Shown here: positions 587-10,454 of the stretch, piece after piece
Layout: each line of letters opens with the position of its first letter
Position numbering within the stretch: the stretch's first letter is position 1
DNA from: a virus
Taxonomy: Duplodnaviria > Heunggongvirae > Uroviricota > Caudoviricetes
Strand: one strand, 5' to 3'
DNA: 10,454 nucleotides
Virus record (IMG/VR): IMGVR_UViG_2541047595_000021
Notes under the pieces: generated by a model
Told to the model about the DNA's origin: nothing
Seen by the model: the letters and a program-made list of their open reading frames with translations, nothing else
Database searches by the model: none
Translations under genes and position numbers: made by a program

Positions 587-1792
587 GTGGCAAGAACGAC
601 ACGCCCCCTGACCAACACAGAAGTTCTGCGCGCTAAAGCGTTAGAAAAGGATCTAACGTTACATGATGGCGATGGCCTTTTTCTGCTCATTAAAACGAAC
701 GGTAAGAAGTTGTGGCGTTTCCGTTATCAACGTCCAGCAACAAAACAGCGGACAATGATGGGGCTTGGTGCTTTCCCCGCCCTTTCACTTGCTGATGCTC
801 GACGGTTAAGAGCGGATTACCTTGCTTTGTTGGCTAATGGTATAGACCCACAAGTTCAAGCTGAATTTATCGAAGAACAACAACAGATAGCTCTAGACAG
901 TATTTTTTCGACTGTTGCGACCAACTGGTTCCAGATAAAAAGCAAAAGTGTTTCCCCTGATTACGCTAAAGATATATGGCGCTCGCTGGAAAAAGACATA
1001 TTCCCAGCCATTGGAGAGATTCCCGTCCAACAAATCAAAGCCCGTACGCTAGTCGAAGCTCTTGAGCCAATCAAAGCTCGTGGGGCTCTTGAAACTGTAC
1101 GTCGACTGATACAGCGGATTAACGAGATAATGATTTACGCTGTAAACACTGGTCTGATTGATGCCAATCCAGCATCGGGGGTTGGGATGGCCTTTGAGAA
1201 GCCCAAAAAGCAAAACATGCCAACATTGCGGCCAGAAGAATTGCCGAAGCTGATGCGTTCTTTAGCTATGTCAAACCTATCTGTTTCGACTCGCTGTCTC
1301 ATTGAATGGCAACTCCTGACACTTGTGCGTCCTTCTGAAGCCTCTGGTGCTCGTTGGGCAGAGCTCGATCTTGATACAAAGCTCTGGACTATTCCGGCAG
1401 AGAGAATGAAAGCCAAACGAGAGCACATTGTTCCTTTATCACCCCAAGCTTTAGATATTTTGGAAGTGATGAAGCCCATCAGTGCTCATCGTGAACATAT
1501 TTTTCCTAGCAGAAATGATCCTAAGCAATCAATGAATAGCCAAACTGCTAATGCAGCTTTAAAACGTATTGGTTTTGGAGGAAAGCTAGTTGCTCATGGC
1601 CTCCGATCTATTGCAAGTACAGCAATGAATGAAGCTGGGTTCAATGCGGATGTTATTGAAGCAGCTTTAGCTCACAGTGATAAAAATGAAGTTCGTAAAG
1701 CCTATAATCGTTCAACCTACCTGGTTCAAAGAAAAGATTTAATGAACTGGTGGGGATTATTTTGTATTAGTTCGAAGAGTGTGAATAAATGA
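587..1792 (+). CDS. int: Tyrosine recombinase, P4-type integrase (N-terminal arm-binding DUF4102-like domain), ssrA-specific
   Basis: GTG start with AAGGAG 9 nt upstream. N-terminus LTNTEVLRAKA...DGDGLFLLIKTNGKKLWRFRYQ is the typical P4-integrase arm-binding motif. C-terminal catalytic motifs HGLRS and AHSD...RKAYNRSTY (H-x-x-R ... Y). Directly adjacent to a tmRNA gene. Confidence 0.9.
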   Translation: MARTTRPLTNTEVLRAKALEKDLTLHDGDGLFLLIKTNGKKLWRFRYQRPATKQRTMMGLGAFPALSLADARRLRADYLALLANGIDPQVQAEFIEEQQQIALDSIFSTVATNWFQIKSKSVSPDYAKDIWRSLEKDIFPAIGEIPVQQIKARTLVEALEPIKARGALETVRRLIQRINEIMIYAVNTGLIDANPASGVGMAFEKPKKQNMPTLRPEELPKLMRSLAMSNLSVSTRCLIEWQLLTLVRPSEASGARWAELDLDTKLWTIPAERMKAKREHIVPLSPQALDILEVMKPISAHREHIFPSRNDPKQSMNSQTANAALKRIGFGGKLVAHGLRSIASTAMNEAGFNADVIEAALAHSDKNEVRKAYNRSTYLVQRKDLMNWWGLFCISSKSVNK

Positions 1793-3426
1793 ATACTTAT
1801 AAGCAAACCATTAAACAAAAATCAAGATTAAACATATGGGAAACAGCTATCGCAAGGTTGACAACCCAAGCTGAGAGCTCAAGAATCTTAGAATCAAACT
1901 ATTTAACAAATCTTATAGATTTTTGTTGGAAAGATACACTAAATCAAGTTGCTATATATGATGAGAGCATTGTATTACGCAATGGTTATAATTGGGTGCA
2001 AAAAATAAGTGATAGTTATAAACCTAAAGCTGCAAGTGAACTAAAGATTGCTTTCTTTTGCGGCCCTGAACCAGAAAATGACTTGGATATACTCTTATCA
2101 TTAGATGTTAGAATAGAAAATGTCTGGGCTTTTGAAATTGATAACAATTCATATAACACTGCCTTACAAAAAGCTAAAGAGTTCTATCCAAAATTAAAAA
2201 TATTCCCTGGTTCTATTGGGGAGTTTTTTAAAACCACACATCATACCTTTGATATTATTTACCTTGATTTTACAAGTTCGTTATTGACTAAAAAGAGCCC
2301 TCCCCTTGGAGTAATAAACTCTGTATTTGACAATCAGGCCCTATCAGACTTAGGGGTGTTAATTGTAAACTCTTGCGAACCCGATGCTAACGAAGATAAC
2401 GCAACATTTCTTGCAAGTTATTTCATGAATCACGAAATAATTGAATCATCTGTAATTAACAAAACTAATGATGATGATTATGATGATAACTATGATTATT
2501 TTTCACTTTTTATTGAATCCCCCACATCACAAGGATACGATGATATAAAGTCATTAGCAAAAGTTATAAAGACTAACATATCCGGAGCGTACTCTGCCTT
2601 TTCAACAAGTTATGTAATGCACTATGCTTCAATGATTAGTCCAACACTTCGTTTTCTACAAAATAACTCATTAAAAAGACAATTATTTAATGATAAAAAA
2701 GCTGAAGTAACTGCAACCTTTGCAGAAATTGGATCAACTGACTTTTTCAAAACATTAATATCAACAGATGGTGAAGCATCGTCCCCCTCCATTTTAGGAA
2801 ACAGATTCCTAGATAATGAAAGCTACCCATTCTGGAATTTCATTGATTCATTAAATGGCTCAGGAACAAGTATTTCATCTTACTTTAAGAGCTTTTTCAC
2901 CACCGCTAAAGAAGGTGTATCCATTTTAAATGCCGTGCAATTTCTGGAATCATTTCACTCAATGCTTACAGGAGCTAGAAAGCTATTATCTCAGCGAATG
3001 CTCAATGCAATACCCCAAATAATAAAAGCAATTCCTGATGCTAGAGGTGGTTTATTCTGTGACATTCCTTTACCCCACCTTTGGTTAGAGGTGGCACTTA
3101 ATCAGTTAGGTGCACCATACCATGTAAACGTGAAAATGCATAATCGATGGAAATATAAAGCAAAAACTCGCACAATGCATACGGACTTATTTGTTTTTGA
3201 TAGATGCAGAGGTTTTTATGACTCAATGCCTATGATAGATCAATACGAAACGATTCTTACTAACATCGAAGAACAAATTTTCGCTAGGTGTTGTATTGAT
3301 ATTATTGGTAAGCAATGTCGTTGGCCAACTCCAAAACTTTATTTTGGTTCGAACCTAATTGGAATAAACGAGTCTGATTGGTCTGAGTTCGCCGAACTTC
3401 GTGAAAGAGAAATTATAAAAGAATAA
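1789..3426 (+). CDS. Hypothetical protein, 545 aa; sole cargo gene in the int-to-cos hotspot; candidate anti-phage defence or abortive-infection protein, function unknown
   Basis: Long uninterrupted ORF whose ATG overlaps the int stop (ATGA). Strongly AT-rich with AT-rich codon usage (AAA, AAT, ATT, TTA), unlike the GC-rich psu/delta/sid/alpha backbone. Residues about 85-165 (KIAFFCGPEPEND...VWAFEID...FDIIYLDF) look like a Rossmann-type nucleotide-binding fold, but this is a weak guess. Acidic D/Y-rich segment NDDDYDDNYDY encoded at 2467..2499. Confidence 0.8.
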   Translation: MNTYKQTIKQKSRLNIWETAIARLTTQAESSRILESNYLTNLIDFCWKDTLNQVAIYDESIVLRNGYNWVQKISDSYKPKAASELKIAFFCGPEPENDLDILLSLDVRIENVWAFEIDNNSYNTALQKAKEFYPKLKIFPGSIGEFFKTTHHTFDIIYLDFTSSLLTKKSPPLGVINSVFDNQALSDLGVLIVNSCEPDANEDNATFLASYFMNHEIIESSVINKTNDDDYDDNYDYFSLFIESPTSQGYDDIKSLAKVIKTNISGAYSAFSTSYVMHYASMISPTLRFLQNNSLKRQLFNDKKAEVTATFAEIGSTDFFKTLISTDGEASSPSILGNRFLDNESYPFWNFIDSLNGSGTSISSYFKSFFTTAKEGVSILNAVQFLESFHSMLTGARKLLSQRMLNAIPQIIKAIPDARGGLFCDIPLPHLWLEVALNQLGAPYHVNVKMHNRWKYKAKTRTMHTDLFVFDRCRGFYDSMPMIDQYETILTNIEEQIFARCCIDIIGKQCRWPTPKLYFGSNLIGINESDWSEFAELREREIIKE

Positions 3427-5671: not shown

Positions 5672-5775
5672 TGTTCACCTCTGTTCACCATAAGAAAAAA
5701 GATAAGTAATACAGTAAGTTAAAGGGTGAACAATCGCAGTAATGACTGTTCACCGTCTGTTCACCACTGTTCACC
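5672..5775. repeat. Cluster of six TGTTCACC octamer iterons (five direct, one inverted) in an AT-rich region; candidate alpha-binding cis replication region (crr) or origin
   Basis: TGTTCACC at 5672..5679, 5682..5689, 5747..5754, 5758..5765 and 5768..5775; inverted copy GGTGAACA at 5725..5732. This octamer is the P4 alpha-protein binding iteron in ori and crr, as I recall. Confidence 0.65.
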
Positions 5776-5879
5776 CGTTGATGGGCTTTTTGTGCTGTTT
5801 ATTACTGTTTATTTTTATTAATTCGCCGGGAATGAATAAGAAAAAACGATTTGTATTTCACTATAAAAATTACGAATTG

Positions 5880-6054: not shown

Positions 6055-6321
6055 ATGCAAGCTGTTTTTTCTTCCCCGTCTCCCGCCCCTGTGACGCCAC
6101 TGATGCCGCTGCCGGACATCACGCAGGAACGTTTTTTACGTCTGCCGGAAGTAATGCACCTGTGCGGCCTGTCACGCTCGACCATCTATGAACTCATCCG
6201 TAAGGGGGAATTTCCGCCGCAGGTGAGTCTTGGCGGTAAAAATGTGGCCTGGCTGCACTCTGAAGTCACCGCATGGATGGCCGGGCGCATTGCCGGACGC
6301 AAACGGGGGTACGACGCATGA
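6055..6321 (+). CDS. vis: Vis/AlpA-family helix-turn-helix regulator and excision factor, 88 aa
   Basis: [47 protein letters not shown] is a typical AlpA/Vis-type HTH. 88 aa as in P4 orf88 (Vis). GAGG ribosome-binding site 7 nt upstream. Confidence 0.8.
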
Positions 6322-6917
6322 TGATGCCCGCTCTGCAAAAACTCCCTTTTTCTGGCTTGCCTTTTTCCGGCATTTGCGGATATAGTTTTCCCGCTGCCGC
6401 AAAATCGGCAGCCGGGCGTGGAAACCCGAGCAATCTAACGGCGACATATGACGCGCCATGCGTCTTTTTTTGTGTCGCAATCAACGCCACAGAGCGCCAG
6501 ATTATGGTGTGGTGTGTGGTCAGTCGAGCAGATGGCACTCCGTGCATCCTGCCCGCGTCCGCTCATTATGCCGCAGAGTCAATGGTAGCTCAGGCGGGGC
6601 AGCCTCCGGGCTGGCCGGTATCCGTTAGAGCCGGTATTTCCACCCCCGTCTGGGCTATCGCCATCGAGCGTGGAAACTCCGGCGATAGCGTAACCTGCTA
6701 TCTAACGGAGGCTGCCATCATGGCTACAACCCTTACCCCTTCACACCCTGAATTTGTCTTTGTGTTTGCGGCTGTCCGTCGCGCAGACCGTCATCCCCGT
6801 ATCTGCATGCTTCGCACCGTCGCCGGTGATGAACGCAGTGCCCGCCGTTCCCTTGTCCGTGACTATGTGCTCTCCCTTGCTGCCCGTCTGCCGGTGGTGG
6901 AGGTGTCCCGTGCGTAA
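6318..6917 (+). CDS. Long ORF (199 aa from the ATG overlapping the vis stop) spanning the immunity region; possibly kil-like with a nested in-frame gene, or largely spurious
   Basis: Open frame across a GC-rich regulatory region. Its ATG overlaps the vis stop (ATGATGATG). P4 is reported, as I recall, to have nested kil/eta genes in this region. No good ribosome-binding site, and long spurious ORFs are common in this GC-rich stretch. Confidence 0.3.
6357..6386 (+). promoter_or_regulatory. Candidate sigma70 promoter (PLE-like): -35 TTGCCT, 18-nt spacer, -10 TATAGT
   Basis: Hexamers at 6357..6362 and 6381..6386, just downstream of vis and upstream of the seqA element. Pattern match only. Confidence 0.35.
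6418..6441 (+). promoter_or_regulatory. seqA-like element (GTGGAAA...TCTAACGG), RNA target complementary to seqB
   Basis: Contains GTGGAAA and TCTAACGG separated by 9 nt. The reverse complement of 6622..6643 contains the same two blocks. Confidence 0.5.
6450..6471 (+). terminator. Short hairpin plus T7 tract; possible intrinsic terminator or attenuator within the immunity region
   Basis: GACGC-gccat-GCGTC followed by TTTTTTT. The stem is only 5 bp, and the position between seqA and seqB is awkward if seqB must be transcribed from the same promoter. Confidence 0.3.
6622..6643 (+). ncRNA. cI: seqB-like core of a putative CI-type immunity RNA (antisense to seqA and seqC; RNA ends undetermined)
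   Basis: CCGTTAGAgccggtaTTTCCAC is the reverse complement of the GTGGAAA...TCTAACGG blocks found at 6418..6441 and 6669..6708. This three-way arrangement matches the P4 CI RNA immunity system as I recall it. Confidence 0.45.
6669..6708 (+). promoter_or_regulatory. seqC-like element; its TCTAACGG block overlaps the Shine-Dalgarno of the ORF starting at 6720
   Basis: GTGGAAA (6672..6678) and TCTAACGG (6701..6708), with the GGAGG ribosome-binding site at 6707..6711. A 9-bp hairpin (6652..6660 with 6681..6689) encloses the GTGGAAA block. Confidence 0.5.
6720..6917 (+). CDS. Small protein, 65 aa (eta-position nested ORF), function unknown
   Basis: ATG at 6720 with a strong GGAGG 8 nt upstream. 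In frame with, and nested in, the longer ORF. Its stop overlaps the GTG start of the next gene. Confidence 0.45.
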
Positions 6918-7197
6918 TAAAAAAGCCCCTCAGACCGTCTCAGCACGTCATGACGCCCGTGAACACCTCAGCATTGAGGCTTACCATAAGCTCAACCGCG
7001 CCAGCGCCGTATCCCAGTTTGTTGGGGGTGATTTGATTCACCGTGAACTCTCCGGCCTGCATCAGCTCTACATTCCGCATATTTTCAGCTACCTGAATGA
7101 AGATATTGATTTTGTGCTGAATGAGCTGAAAGCCAAAGGCCTGTGCCGCGATTTTCTCGCCCAGCAGAAAGACCGGGGAGACAGGACGCATGTTTGA
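6910..7197 (+). CDS. Epsilon-position protein, 95 aa; possible helper-prophage derepression factor (antirepressor)
   Basis: GTG start with GGAGG 6 nt upstream. Sits immediately upstream of orf151 in the P4 order. The track ORF from 6754 is an upstream extension in the same frame without a ribosome-binding site. Assignment is by position and size only. Confidence 0.5.
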
Positions 7198-8115: not shown

Positions 8116-10454
8116 ATGAAAATGAACGTAACCGCCACCGTCAGCCATGCGCTCGGCCACTGGCCGCGTATTCTCCCGGCGCTGGGGATTCAGGTGCTGA
8201 AAAACCGTCATCAGCCCTGTCCGGTCTGTGGCGGGAGTGACCGCTTCCGTTTTGATGACAGGGAGGGGCGCGGCACCTGGTACTGCAATCAGTGTGGTGC
8301 CGGTGACGGCCTGAAACTGGTTGAAAAGGTGTTTGGTGTCTCCCCGTCCGACGCGGCCGCAAAGGTGGCTGCCGTGACCGGCAGCCTGCCCCCGGCTGAC
8401 CCGGCAGTGACGGCTGCCGCCGGTGCTGAAACAGACGCTGCCCGGAAGAACGCCGCCGCACTGGCACAAACCCTGATGGCGAAAACCCGTCCCGGAACCG
8501 GTAACGCCTACCTGACCCGCAAGGGCTTTCCCGGCCGGGAATGCCGGATGCTGACCGGCACACACAGAGCCGGTGGCGTGAGCTGGCGTGCCGGTGACCT
8601 TGTGGTGCCACTGTATGACGACAGCGGCGAACTGGTTAACCTTCAGTTAATCAGTGCTGACGGCCGTAAGCGCACCCTGAAAGGCGGACAGGTCAGGGGC
8701 ACCTGTCACACCCTTGAAGGACAGAATCAGGCCGGAAAACGTCTGTGGATAGCGGAGGGATACGCGACCGCACTTACCGTGCATCACCTGACCGGTGAAA
8801 CGGTGATGGTGGCGCTTTCTTCCGTGAACCTCCTTTCTCTGGCCAGCCTTGCCCGGCAGAAGCATCCGGCCTGTCAGATTGTCCTTGCCGCAGACCGTGA
8901 CCTCAGCGGTGACGGCCAGAAAAAAGCCGCCGCAGCCGCAGATGCGTGTGAAGGTGTTGTTGCCCTGCCGCCGGTCTTCGGTGACTGGAATGATGCCTTC
9001 ACGCAGTACGGCGGGGAGGCCACCCGTAAGGCCATTTACGATGCCATCCGGCCACCGGCTGAAAGCCCGTTCGACACCATGAGTGAAGCGGAGTTTTCCG
9101 CCATGAGTACCAGCGAAAAGGCCATGCGTATCTATGAGCATTACGGCGAGGCGCTCGCGGTCGATGCCAACGGCCAGCTTCTGTCCCGCTATGAAAATGG
9201 TGTCTGGAAGGTGCTGCCGCCACAGGACTTTGCCCGGAATGTGGCCGGGCTGTTTCAGCGGCTGCGCGCGCCGTTCTCCTCCGGGAAGGTGGCCTCCGTG
9301 GTGGACACCCTGAAGCTGATTATTCCGCAGCAGGAAGCCCCCTCCCGCTGCCTGATTGGCTTTCGTAACGGCGTGCTCGACACGCAGAACGGCACGTTCC
9401 ACCCGCACAGTCCGTCACACTGGATGCGTACCCTGTGCGATGTGGATTTCACCCCGCCGGTGGAAGGGGAAACGCTGGAAACCCACGCCCACGCGTTCTG
9501 GCGCTGGCTTGACCGTGCCGCCGGTGGCCGTGCGGAAAAACGCGACGTGATTCTGGCCGCACTGTTTATGGTGCTGGCAAACCGCTATGACTGGCAGCTC
9601 TTTCTGGAGGTGACCGGTCCCGGCGGCAGCGGCAAAAGTATCATGGCCGAAATAGCCACCCTGCTGGCCGGGGAGGATAACGCCACGTCGGCCACCATTG
9701 AGACGCTGGAATCCCCGCGTGAACGTGCCGCGTTAACTGGCTTCTCACTGATACGCCTGCCGGACCAGGAAAAATGGAGCGGCGACGGAGCCGGACTCAA
9801 GGCCATCACCGGCGGCGATGCAGTGTCCGTTGACCCGAAATACCGGGATGCGTACTCCACGCATATCCCGGCGGTGATTCTGGCCGTGAACAATAAAATA
9901 ACCCGATGCGCTTCACCGACCGCAGCGGCGGCGTGTCACGCCGGCGGGTGATTATTCACTTCCCGGAACAGATAGCCCCGCAGGAGCGCGACCCGCAGCT
10001 TAAGGACAAAATCACCCGCGAGCTGGCGGTCATCGTGCGTCACCTGATGCAGAAGTTCAGCGACCCGATGCTCGCCCGGTCACTGCTTCAGTCCCAGCAG
10101 AACTCAGACGAGGCACTGAACATCAAACGGGATGCCGACCCGACGTTTGATTTTATCGGCTATCTGGAAACCCTGCCGCAGACCAGCGGCATGTATATGG
10201 GGAACGCCAGTATCATCCCGCGTAATTACCGTAAATACCTCTATCACGCCTATCTGGCCTACATGGAGGCAAACGGCTACCGGAATGTACTCAGTCTGAA
10301 AATGTTCGGGCTGGGGCTGCCGGTGATGCTGAAGGAATACGGACTGAATTACGAGAAGCGCCATACCAAACAGGGGATACAGACCAACCTGACACTGAAA
10401 GAGGAAAGCTACGGCGACTGGCTGCCAAAATGTGACGCCCGTGCAACAACCTGA
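8116..10454 (+). pseudogene. alpha: Alpha primase-helicase (zinc-ribbon primase, TOPRIM, SF3/D5-type helicase, C-terminal DNA-binding domain), interrupted by a +5 frameshift near 9892..9901
   Basis: AAGGAG ribosome-binding site 9 nt before the ATG. Zinc-ribbon CPVCGG...CNQC, TOPRIM acidic motifs (IAEGY, LAADRD), Walker A VTGPGGSGKS. Reading frame 1 stops at 9951 and frame 0 continues from 9906 to the stop at 10452..10454. Combined length is about 777 aa, as for P4 alpha. The breakpoint coincides with a tandem AATAA-AATAA. Confidence 0.75.

Follow-up and report, generated by a model that had tools for sequence, protein, structure and literature searches.

A P4-type antisense RNA immunity region with a non-P4 specificity allele in a satellite prophage at ssrA

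The window analysed here, the whole stretch of 10,454 nucleotides, is by its sequence a satellite prophage of the P4 family that has integrated at the E. coli tmRNA gene, ssrA, and we consider it highly probable that its immunity region works in the way described for P4. The system is of the known P4 type, with a specificity allele that is not that of P4. The mechanism of P4 immunity is summarised in PMC4825925, PMC3632133 and PMC10111431, and the RNA families C4 and isrK are those of the P4 CI RNA and of P4 seqA, respectively (PMC3632133, PMC4825925).

The region is built around three copies of a bipartite motif. As the initial annotation had noticed, they lie in direct, inverted and direct orientation: GTGGAAA-N9-TCTAACGG at 6418-6441 (+ strand), the reverse complement CCGTTAGA-N7-TTTCCAC at 6622-6643 and GTGGAAA-N24-TCTAACGG at 6670-6708 (+ strand), each seen on direct reading and again in a pattern search. 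The coordinates of the first two copies had been given correctly, while the start of the third had been placed one base early, at 6669. These three matches compare with 0.01 expected from 200 dinucleotide shuffles, none of which reached three. The boxes are named as follows.

6418..6424, + strand: a1 box of seqA, GTGGAAA, complementary to a' of the CI RNA
6434..6441, + strand: b1 box of seqA, TCTAACGG, complementary to b' of the CI RNA
6622..6643, + strand: seqB, antisense recognition element, with b' CCGTTAGA at 6622-6629 and a' TTTCCAC at 6637-6643
6670..6708, + strand: seqC, downstream target, with a2 GTGGAAA at 6670-6676 and b2 TCTAACGG at 6701-6708, 24 nt between them

The complementarity of seqB to seqA and to seqC is exact (7+8 nt each), with a-b spacings of 9 nt in seqA, 7 nt in seqB and 24 nt in seqC. 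The predicted duplexes reach -34.7 kcal/mol for seqB:seqA and -37.3 kcal/mol for seqB:seqC; none of 500 dinucleotide shuffles of either target was as low (means -21.6 and -21.0, respectively), and the proposed duplexes thus held up against shuffled controls. Perfect pairing of seqB with b2 extends over 9 nt (6701-6709), and the predicted duplex continues to 6714 with one bulge. A sliding duplex scan was dropped as a test of specificity, given that the GC-rich 36-mer also yields about -37 kcal/mol at an unrelated site (8475-8529, - strand); the exact-motif search was taken as the valid test.

The same pairing is seen across relatives. In an alignment of 109 related loci, a1 and a' are paired in 99.7% of cells, with double changes at 5 of the 7 pairs, and b1 and b' in 98.9%, with double changes at 7 of the 8. 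Overall, 99.3% of the seqA:seqB cells and 99.0% of the seqB:seqC cells are paired, against 33-52% in slid controls, and in either case 12 of the 15 pairs show double changes. Together with the duplex energies, this covariation bears out the earlier proposal that the middle element pairs with both flanks. The non-Watson-Crick cells, counted at aligned columns, comprise 123 G.U and 7 A.C (21 and 6 once a dominant column is removed, p 0.003), and this excess of G.U therefore indicates a constraint acting on the + strand RNA. Apparent b2 variants pairing only through G.U, obtained from an unconstrained best-site scan, were rejected as non-homologous sites beside a2.

Upstream of and between these boxes lie the other parts of a P4-like leader.

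6357..6386, + strand: P_LE-type constitutive sigma-70 promoter, TTGCCT, 18-nt spacer, TATAGT, inside eta; activity predicted
6380..6432, + strand: c4-a1b1, Rfam RF03163, 51.9 bits (gathering threshold 46.7)
6393..6470, + strand: leader RNA with seqA, IsrK-like element, Rfam isrK RF01394, 75.4 bits (gathering threshold 50)
6450..6471, + strand: intrinsic terminator, homolog of P4 t1, hairpin GACGCGCCATGCGTC then T7 (terminator scan)
6578..6665, + strand: CI RNA gene, C4 antisense RNA family, Rfam C4 RF01695, 76.2 bits (gathering threshold 45)
6654..6689, + strand: alternative hairpin, an inverted repeat of 9 Watson-Crick pairs (6654-6662:6681-6689) with a2 in its 18-nt loop

The promoter is the single site of a consensus scan for which 0.2 were expected. 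The P4 record X02534 has a -10 annotated at the corresponding position, both hexamers are kept in the alignment of 109 loci, and the transcript is predicted to start near 6393. In the minimum free energy fold of the leader, a hairpin at 6393-6412 is followed by a second one at 6413-6428 with a1 in its loop, by a single-stranded b1 and by t1. This terminator, which corresponds to the 3' hairpin of the isrK model, is kept in 109 of the 109 aligned loci. Rfam matches were accepted at covariance-model scores at or above the curated gathering threshold, and those to C4, c4-a1b1 and isrK are all full-length. C4 and c4-a1b1 belong to Rfam clan CL00128. Matches to the three families are arranged alike in P4, in the P1-like phage D6 and in the N15-like phiKO2.

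The full-length isrK match, at 75.4 bits, also speaks for a different reading, in which a short seqA RNA would be the main trans-acting species and would titrate CI, or refold the long transcript so that the kil ribosome-binding site becomes accessible, in the manner of IsrK on Gifsy-1 orf45/anrP. The IsrK/STnc1160/orf45-anrP region of Gifsy-1 (Salmonella) shares with our window an IsrK-like leader reaching to an intrinsic terminator and then a C4-like RNA, which is processed in Gifsy-1 and predicted to be so here, and P4 seqA has been described as a structural homolog of IsrK, with the processed C4-like RNA STnc1160 downstream of isrK (PMC4825925). The seqA and seqC boxes being identical, free seqA RNA would moreover compete for CI. 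However, since they are identical and not complementary, seqA RNA could not pair directly with the kil translation initiation region (TIR), and any effect it has must pass through CI, to which the P4 literature assigns immunity (PMC4825925, PMC10111431). In Gifsy-1 the short IsrK RNA is reported to activate orf45/anrP translation in trans (PMC4825925), whereas in the P4 model applied here CI would be the trans-acting species, as a repressor; the likeness rests on the IsrK-like RNA match. We regard this reading as improbable.

The mature CI RNA is predicted to span approximately 6583-6661 (79 nt). Its fold consists of a long closing stem and two hairpins, the second of which carries b' in its loop, and a' lies in a single-stranded joint; the fold has a minimum free energy of -48.1 kcal/mol (z -5.2), and across the family it is 99.9% paired with 6 double-change pairs. 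A stable RNA had been anticipated at about 6600..6670, which is the right region, although the Rfam C4 match (6578-6665) and the stable fold (6583-6661) put the start about 20 nt further 5'. The closing stem reads as tRNA-acceptor-like with GCCA on its 3' side, and processing itself is predicted from P4. Over 11 nt, CI hairpin 1 (6598-6608) is also a perfect complement of the kil TIR (6706-6716). This pairing was considered as an additional mask of the Shine-Dalgarno sequence (SD) and rejected, because its covariation equals the shuffled value and three of its positions are often unpaired.

The alternative hairpin at 6654-6689 covaries as well (98.4% paired, double changes at 7 of 9 pairs; slid controls 23-69%). 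It and the bottom of the CI closing stem are mutually exclusive, both using the bottom of the CI 3' arm, and by eye the same complementarity occurs in the P1-like phage D6. This hairpin has no place in our best explanation of the region.

The coding features around the module are the following.

6055..6321, + strand: orf88, AlpA/Vis-type helix-turn-helix protein (Pfam PF05930, E 7e-21; P4 ORF88 annotation)
6318..6917, + strand: eta, 199 codons, in frame with kil (PGAP CDS in locus L003)
6707..6711, + strand: kil Shine-Dalgarno GGAGG, which shares its first two G with the 3' end of b2; kil ATG at 6720
6720..6917, + strand: kil, 65 codons, Icd-like protein (NCBIfam NF033153, full domain, E 1.6e-21)
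6910..7197, + strand: epsilon, helper derepression protein (Pfam PF25738, E 8e-51; P4 annotation)

On the P4 model, which we favour, the constitutive promoter at 6357-6386 would transcribe a leader containing seqA (a1, b1), t1, the CI RNA gene and seqC (a2, b2), and the CI RNA (approximately 6583-6661) would be excised from it and accumulate. The exposed b' loop and a' joint would pair in trans with a1/b1 and a2/b2 of new leader transcripts. Pairing at seqA would favour termination at t1, and pairing at seqC would cover the kil SD, leaving the leader untranslated, with transcription stopping before epsilon and the alpha primase. The prophage would be kept quiescent and incoming satellites of the same specificity would be blocked, until a late promoter upstream fires and ribosomes coupled from orf88 translate eta across the module, overriding the control. 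We directly observe the elements, which are homologous to those of P4, together with the RNA fold, the complementarity with its covariation, the SD overlap and the open eta frame; the processing of the RNA, the action on termination and the resulting immunity are carried over from the P4 literature and would hold here by analogy. On the same analogy, epsilon is the first downstream gene of the left operon gated by the module. Work on P4 by Sabbattini (1995), Forti (1995, 1999, 2002) and Briani (2000) is said to cover RNase P/PNPase processing, the terminators t1, t4 and timm, and the 65- and 199-codon sizes.

The first ORF translatable from the P_LE transcript is kil, which is 63-67 codons long in most relatives and shows an excess of variation at third codon positions (pi 0.196/0.114/0.406). 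The initial annotation had proposed that seqC overlaps the GGAGG of the ORF starting at 6720. This is the case: the exactly complementary box covers the first two G, and b2 ends in the kil SD in every aligned family member, as well as in D6 and in the N15-like phiKO2. The conserved overlap, together with the resemblance of the Icd-like kil to P1 icd, would also suit a purely translational repressor of the P1 c4/icd type, in which CI would do no more than mask the kil ribosome-binding site at seqC, downstream termination would follow secondarily as Rho-dependent polarity on untranslated RNA and seqA/t1 would merely set the CI level. Two chimeric loci, L091 and L151, retain a cognate seqC despite a non-cognate seqA, which suggests that seqC is indispensable, and Briani in 2000 reportedly found that deletion of t1 still allows lysogeny. 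On the other hand, covariation with seqB is as tight for seqA as for seqC, and the t1 hairpin is retained throughout the aligned loci; the seqA/t1 arm is therefore under selection. Work on P4 reportedly showed that CI stimulates termination at t1 in vitro without translation. In P4-like prophages of S. Typhi the IsrK-like (seqA) element is reported to be required (PMC3632133). We thus consider the purely translational alternative unlikely, though it is the strongest competitor of the P4 model.

The whole module is embedded in the conserved reading frame of eta, as published for P4. Eta encloses the promoter, seqA, t1, CI and seqC, and its ATG at 6318 overlaps the stop codon of orf88 (ATGA), which couples it to orf88. 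In 116 of 121 loci the 300 nt preceding kil are free of stops in the kil frame, compared with 1 of 121 for each other frame. We had considered the 199-aa PGAP CDS an over-call through RNA genes and rejected this view, as the CDS is eta and its frame is conserved open. The open frame, along with the label 'transcriptional repressor' given to RefSeq P4p10 and to PHROGs 6928 and 1743, could point to a protein repressor encoded through the region, with the repeats as its DNA operators. However, the family alignment shows no third-codon-position excess anywhere upstream of kil, and the amino-acid sequence therefore lacks the conservation expected of a protein. In protein terms the box changes are radical (R-G-N vs R-E-N; S-V-R vs S-C-E), yet in RNA they are perfectly compensatory, G.U is favoured over A.C, and the direct/inverted/direct layout with its unequal a-b spacings fits RNA pairing, not a common operator. 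Moreover, it is the translation of Eta, not its product, that prevents termination (PMC10111431). A protein repressor is, in our opinion, extremely improbable, and the 'transcriptional repressor' or 'regulator' labels on this ORF are an annotation trap that arises from translating an RNA gene.

Aligned to the P4 immunity region (NC_001609, 8155-8755), positions 6330-6930 of the window are 95% identical over 601 nt, with counterparts of seqA, cI/seqB and seqC. The spacing is identical, with 0 indels across 609 nt, and both have the same promoter, t1, CI fold, kil TIR and eta frame; the element differs from P4 in its location at ssrA and in its cargo gene. This identity, the P4 gene order and the Rfam matches to C4, c4-a1b1 and isrK above gathering support the earlier suggestion of a P4-like CI RNA immunity. 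Taken alone, this matters little: a classic P4 RNA immunity switch is re-identified, and Rfam already recognises all three of its RNA parts.

The differences from P4 number 30 in 609 nt. The boxes, 45 nt in total, contain 18 of them (Fisher p 5e-15), every one compensated in all three copies, and the remaining background is 98% identical. The a box reads GTGGAAA here and GTGAGAA in P4, and the b box TCTAACGG here and TTCACAGG in P4, in seqA, seqB and seqC alike. Cross-duplexes with P4 give -20.7 to -24.6 kcal/mol, which is the shuffle background. Because all 18 specificity bases differ and compensate one another, we propose reciprocal heteroimmunity: the duplex energies predict that the element is immune to itself and not to P4, nor P4 to the element, and it probably no longer cross-reacts with P4. 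The 18 coordinated changes and the family covariation amount to a natural compensatory-mutation experiment that independently supports the published seqA/seqB/seqC pairing model. The predicted heteroimmune allele, the P1 c4 naming of the boxes, the predicted RNA at 6583-6661 and the embedding in eta, which the initial annotation had not noticed, are four refinements of its proposal.

A relative of P4, the retronphage phiR73, is reportedly heteroimmune (Sabbattini et al. 1996, Virology 216:389); it integrates at selC and carries a retron. This P4-like element is said to have shifted its specificity through base changes in the CI RNA with matching changes in the targets, and resembles the present case in concept.

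Our two-box a/b naming is that of P1 c4. Citron and Schuster in 1990 reportedly described immI of P1 and P7 as a c4 antisense RNA with a1b1 and a2b2 targets, icd and ant. P1/P7 immI falls in the same Rfam families (RF01695, RF03163), and P1-type immI shows about 70% DNA similarity from C4 to the icd/kil start. In D6 the a1b1 leader with its terminator, c4, a2b2 and an Icd-like ORF follow one another as they do here, and b2 likewise ends in GGAGG; each of the four boxes can pair perfectly with the D6 c4, and the leader-to-C4 spacer is 44 nt compared with 107 nt here. Like immI, the window has a c4 whose a' and b' are complementary to a2 and b2, with b2 at the ribosome-binding site of an icd-like ORF. 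However, P1 and D6 gate the antirepressor ant (in D6, Ant directly follows icd), whereas here epsilon, orf151, orf106 and the alpha primase follow. A domain search 3' of kil identified epsilon (Pfam Derepression), orf151, DUF5375 and the alpha primase, and no Ant, KilA or Rha domain among the genes downstream of kil. As no antirepressor lies downstream, the module is homologous to immI but is not an immI locus.

The anti-immunity locus of N15 and phiKO2 likewise carries isrK, c4-a1b1 and C4 in the same order 5' of an icd-like ORF. It differs by the antirepressors antA and antB downstream, by a spacer of 25 nt and by the start of its first ORF. Ravin et al. in 1999 reportedly described the N15 locus with a small processed CA RNA, icd, antA and antB.

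The prophage as a whole shows the P4-like gene order int, cargo, psu, delta, sid, orf88, eta/kil, eps, orf151, orf106 and alpha. The flanking genes are one-for-one counterparts of P4 genes, with the immunity leader between orf88 and epsilon/alpha. The cargo ORF at 1789-3426 had no match in Pfam, NCBIfam, PADLOC, PHROGs or PDB sequences. By comparison with a 99.9% identical element with intact alpha, the alpha primase is split by a 5-bp insertion at 9892-9896 into ORFs of 611 aa and 182 aa; the element may therefore be unable to replicate, which might leave the module with no role beyond the control of kil or the exclusion of incoming satellites. The insertion could also mean that the module is an intact-looking relic, functionless here, in a decaying cryptic prophage. 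We believe this to be quite unlikely: the six boxes are mutually perfect, the promoter, t1, CI fold, SD, kil and eta are intact, the same a/b allele recurs in 8-9 other loci, and a toxic kil would still need control. The insertion itself may have arisen recently or reflect a sequencing error.

Across relatives, the a and b boxes evolve about 12 times faster than the sequence around them. Among 155 copies there are at least 27 a/b combinations, and one b allele is found with all three common a alleles. We tentatively propose, with slightly less than even confidence in the two points jointly, that a (7 nt) and b (8 nt) form a combinatorial address code that has diversified into dozens of mutually orthogonal immunity types, presumably because competing satellites select for it, and that the code changes through concerted change at three separate sites. 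Such change may come about by patchy recombination via viable intermediates with a mismatched seqA, as exemplified by L091 and L151, or by templated correction between inverted copies. If this is true, the window carries one address from a natural library of orthogonal antisense-RNA switches. In the literature searched, large surveys of P4-like satellites do not mention this RNA system; a hypervariable two-box code would be relevant to satellite-satellite exclusion, to the typing of P4-like elements and possibly as a source of orthogonal RNA regulators. The region is carried by roughly 1,000 complete E. coli genomes.

The gene order of the window indicates a P4-ordered element inserted beside ssrA. 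Based on the P4 annotation, the annotation of a 99.9% identical E. coli chromosome and Pfam, the order is integrase, a 545-aa cargo ORF, psu/delta/sid (minus strand), orf88 (AlpA type), the immunity region, epsilon, orf151, orf106 (DUF5375) and the alpha primase. The P4-type integrase (587-1792) lies directly 3' of a complete tmRNA gene, which argues that ssrA was used as the attachment site, as it is in CP4-57. The region is present in about 1,089 of 5,426 complete E. coli genomes. Within it, 6330-6930 matches the P4 immunity region (NC_001609 8155-8755; BLAST, phage records) over its full length at 95% identity, supporting the CI-type immunity module proposed in the initial annotation.

Features of the element and its immunity region
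40-402, tmRNA, complete gene, tag ANDENYALAA (Rfam, gathering threshold)
1789-3426, + strand, cargo ORF, 545 aa, in the int-psu position
6357-6386, sigma-70-type promoter, TTGCCT-18-TATAGT, matching the -10 marked in the old P4 record
6380-6432, c4-a1b1 (Rfam, gathering threshold, 51.9 bits)
6393-6470, isrK (Rfam, gathering threshold, 75.4 bits)
6418-6424 and 6434-6441, copy 1 (seqA), direct, GTGGAAA and TCTAACGG (read from the sequence and motif search)
6450-6464, hairpin of an intrinsic terminator, followed by T7, 3' of seqA (terminator scan; kept in all loci)
6578-6665, C4 antisense RNA (Rfam, gathering threshold, 76.2 bits)
6622-6629 and 6637-6643, copy 2 (seqB), reverse complement, CCGTTAGA and TTTCCAC (read from the sequence and motif search)
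6654-6662 with 6681-6689, alternative hairpin, 9 bp, bottom of the CI 3' arm paired downstream, a2 in the loop (covariation)
6670-6676 and 6701-6708, copy 3 (seqC), direct, GTGGAAA and TCTAACGG (read from the sequence and motif search)
6720-6917, kil, 65 codons, complete Icd-like domain NF033153

The IsrK-like element is P4 seqA, the upstream target, and the C4-like RNA is the P4 CI RNA (PMC3632133, PMC4825925), whose recognition part is seqB; the terminator after seqA corresponds to P4 t1. The ORF at 6720-6917 is P4 kil and shows the third-position excess expected of a genuine gene (pi 0.196/0.114/0.406). The immunity system is already well described, and the window's copy is a new member with non-P4 specificity; what goes beyond the descriptions we found is limited to the alternative hairpin and to the two-box code at population level.

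The three-copy bipartite motif in direct, inverted and direct orientation, noticed from the sequence alone, is present: exactly three gapped sites occur on both strands of the 10.4-kb window vs 0.01 expected from 200 dinucleotide shuffles. The copies at 6418 and 6622 stand as first placed, while the third starts at 6670 rather than 6669. In an ungapped alignment of 609 nt, 30 differences separate the window from P4. The six boxes, 45 nt in all, hold 18 of these and the remaining 564 nt hold 12 (Fisher p 5e-15), and each change in a box has its counterpart in both other copies. Box a reads GTGAGAA in P4 and GTGGAAA in the window, and box b TTCACAGG and TCTAACGG, respectively, identically in seqA and in seqC (the downstream target) and as the complement in seqB.

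Predicted duplex energies (RNAduplex, kcal/mol)
Window seqB with its own targets: seqA -34.7, seqC -37.3
P4 seqB with its own targets: seqA -35.5, seqC -38.1
Window seqB with P4 targets: seqA -20.7, seqC -24.6
P4 seqB with window targets: seqA -23.0, seqC -23.8
Shuffled targets, mean of 500: seqA -21.6 (SD 3.5), seqC -21.0 (SD 3.3)

None of the 500 target shuffles reached the cognate energies, so the duplexes of seqB with seqA and seqC proposed initially both lie beyond their shuffled controls. With cognate pairing strong and the crosses with P4 near the shuffle mean, these energies predict that the window's element would be heteroimmune to P4. The retronphage phiR73, which Sabbattini reportedly described in 1996, is a published precedent for a heteroimmune variant of the P4 kind.

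We then consider the pairing across relatives. One genome per species and IMG/VR were scanned with the conserved CI scaffold, its specificity positions set to N, yielding 31 and 119 loci, respectively, in genera including Serratia, Pantoea, Erwinia, Citrobacter, Klebsiella, Hafnia, Rahnella and Edwardsiella. Among the 155 seqB copies there are 27 different a/b combinations, and 109 non-identical loci were aligned.

Covariation in the alignment of 109 loci
seqA:seqB, 99.3% of cells paired, double compensatory changes in 12/15 pairs, slid controls 40-52%
seqB:seqC, 99.0% of cells paired, double compensatory changes in 12/15 pairs, slid controls 33-48%
CI fold (Rfam C4 structure), 99.9% of cells paired, double changes in 6/27 pairs, slid controls 29-52%

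This covariation strongly and independently supports the published pairing scheme and, together with the duplex energies, bears out the claim that the middle element can pair with both flanks. Among non-Watson-Crick cells of the two intermolecular helices, 123 are G.U vs 7 A.C. Most G.U cells come from seqB position 6622 (C in 57 loci, U in 52), opposite an invariant G in both targets; without this column the counts are 21 and 6 (p 0.003). The excess of G.U over A.C therefore places the constraint on the + strand RNA and not on DNA operators.

The predicted folds place a1 in a hairpin loop and b1 single-stranded in the leader, b' in the loop of the second CI hairpin and a' in an unpaired joint. 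At the kil start (GGAGG 6707-6711, ATG 6720), b2 ends in GG and the predicted CI:seqC duplex spans 6701-6714, the whole SD, with one bulge, in agreement with the overlap first noted between seqC and this ribosome-binding site. In every aligned locus the GG of GGAG(G) closes b2, and the ATG follows 8-9 nt downstream. CI hairpin 1 and the kil TIR are complementary over 11 nt, but this possible extra interaction was discarded as it is without covariation support.

As in P4, the constitutive promoter P_LE would produce a leader transcript from which CI would be excised and accumulate. Pairing of CI with seqA, for which our data argue directly, would favour termination at t1, and its equally supported pairing with seqC would block kil translation, so that the leader would end before epsilon and alpha. 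Alternatively, the seqC/translation arm alone may matter, termination being secondary polarity as in P1 c4/icd. This has some support from two natural chimeras in IMG/VR, L091 and L151, in which seqB and seqC share one specificity and seqA has another (mismatched at both boxes in L091, at b1 only in L151), suggesting recombination between seqA and CI and persistence of elements with a mismatched seqA. However, seqA covaries equally and t1 is universal, which argues for selection on both arms.

Late-promoter transcripts would be translated through eta, the longer frame containing kil, and escape. Previous work places the constitutive promoter, seqA and CI inside eta, with Kil a truncated Eta; full-length Eta is made only from the upstream late promoter, its translation coupled to the alpA homolog, and Eta translation prevents termination (PMC10111431). 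The possibility that the 199-aa PGAP CDS 6318-6917 is an over-call was ruled out by the kil frame, which has no stop over 300 nt upstream in 116/121 loci vs 1/121 for each other frame. Moreover, seqA-to-CI spacer lengths differ by multiples of three, and the eta start codon (6318) and the orf88 stop overlap in ATGA. Upstream of kil the third-codon-position excess is absent (spacer 0.086/0.191/0.149, leader 0.136/0.087/0.077, CI 0.118/0.134/0.125). A frame kept open without amino-acid conservation fits the act of translation itself mattering.

Protein annotations have been placed on an RNA gene (window 6318-6719; L001 1672-2088). RefSeq P4 continues to carry a 'cI gene product / transcriptional repressor' of 137 aa, and PHROG 6928, 1743, 995, 821 and 3960 ('transcriptional repressor' / 'regulator') match Eta mainly over translated CI RNA/seqC DNA. 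These functional labels are probably artefacts inherited from the earlier view of the repressor as a protein.

P1-like D6 and N15-like phiKO2 share the window's order of isrK-like leader, C4 and Icd-like ORF, and the three modules are homologous. In D6, c4 is perfectly complementary to each of the phage's own a1, b1, a2 and b2 boxes, and b2 ends in GGAGG as in the window. The gated genes differ (ant in D6, antA/antB in phiKO2, epsilon through alpha in the window), and the window locus therefore belongs to the P4 system and to the Rfam C4 clan but does not count as a P1 immI locus.

The alternative hairpin 6654-6689 covaries strongly (98.4% paired, with double changes in 7/9 pairs) and is mutually exclusive with the bottom of the CI closing stem; the same complementarity is visible in D6. 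It could serve a2 presentation, processing control or as P4's atypical terminator t4.

The boxes evolve far faster than their surroundings. Where the backbones of two loci are 97-99% identical, the boxes diverge by 0.25 per site vs 0.02 outside, and specificity already differs in 34% of pairs at >=99% identity. All three common a alleles are found in combination with each of the b alleles TCTAACGG, TTCACAGG and CTCGAAGG, even though the spacing between a and b is only 7-24 nt, at three separate sites.

One IMG/VR contig, L086, has two CI copies 2.6 kb apart (3154-3192 and 5771-5809) with one and the same specificity, which L037, another contig of its genome, also carries. This would be unexpected if co-resident elements must be heteroimmune, and may reflect a duplication or the assembly. 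Two assemblies labelled 'Clostridiales bacterium' MAG and 'Vagococcus sp.' (L012, L018) also contain near-identical P4-like immunity regions of enterobacterial type, most likely through contamination or mis-binning.

Compared with the 99.9% identical E. coli element, a 5-bp insertion, AATAA (9892-9896, a local duplication), breaks the alpha primase-helicase gene into two ORFs of 611 and 182 aa, indicating either a replication-defective element or a sequencing error. The int-psu position is a defence-gene hotspot of P4-like satellites (PMC9122126). The ORF there has a GC content of 33% vs 55-62% in the backbone and no match in Pfam, NCBIfam, PADLOC, PHROGs or PDB sequences. Its AlphaFold model is confident (pLDDT 89, pTM 0.92); only the N-terminal third weakly resembles class I SAM methyltransferases (E about 3e-4, TMq 0.18), about 300 C-terminal residues being without match. 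The protein belongs to a widespread hypothetical family, conserved at full length in many Proteobacteria, Paenibacillus, Melittangium and Methanosarcina, and its gene is a candidate uncharacterised cargo or defence gene.
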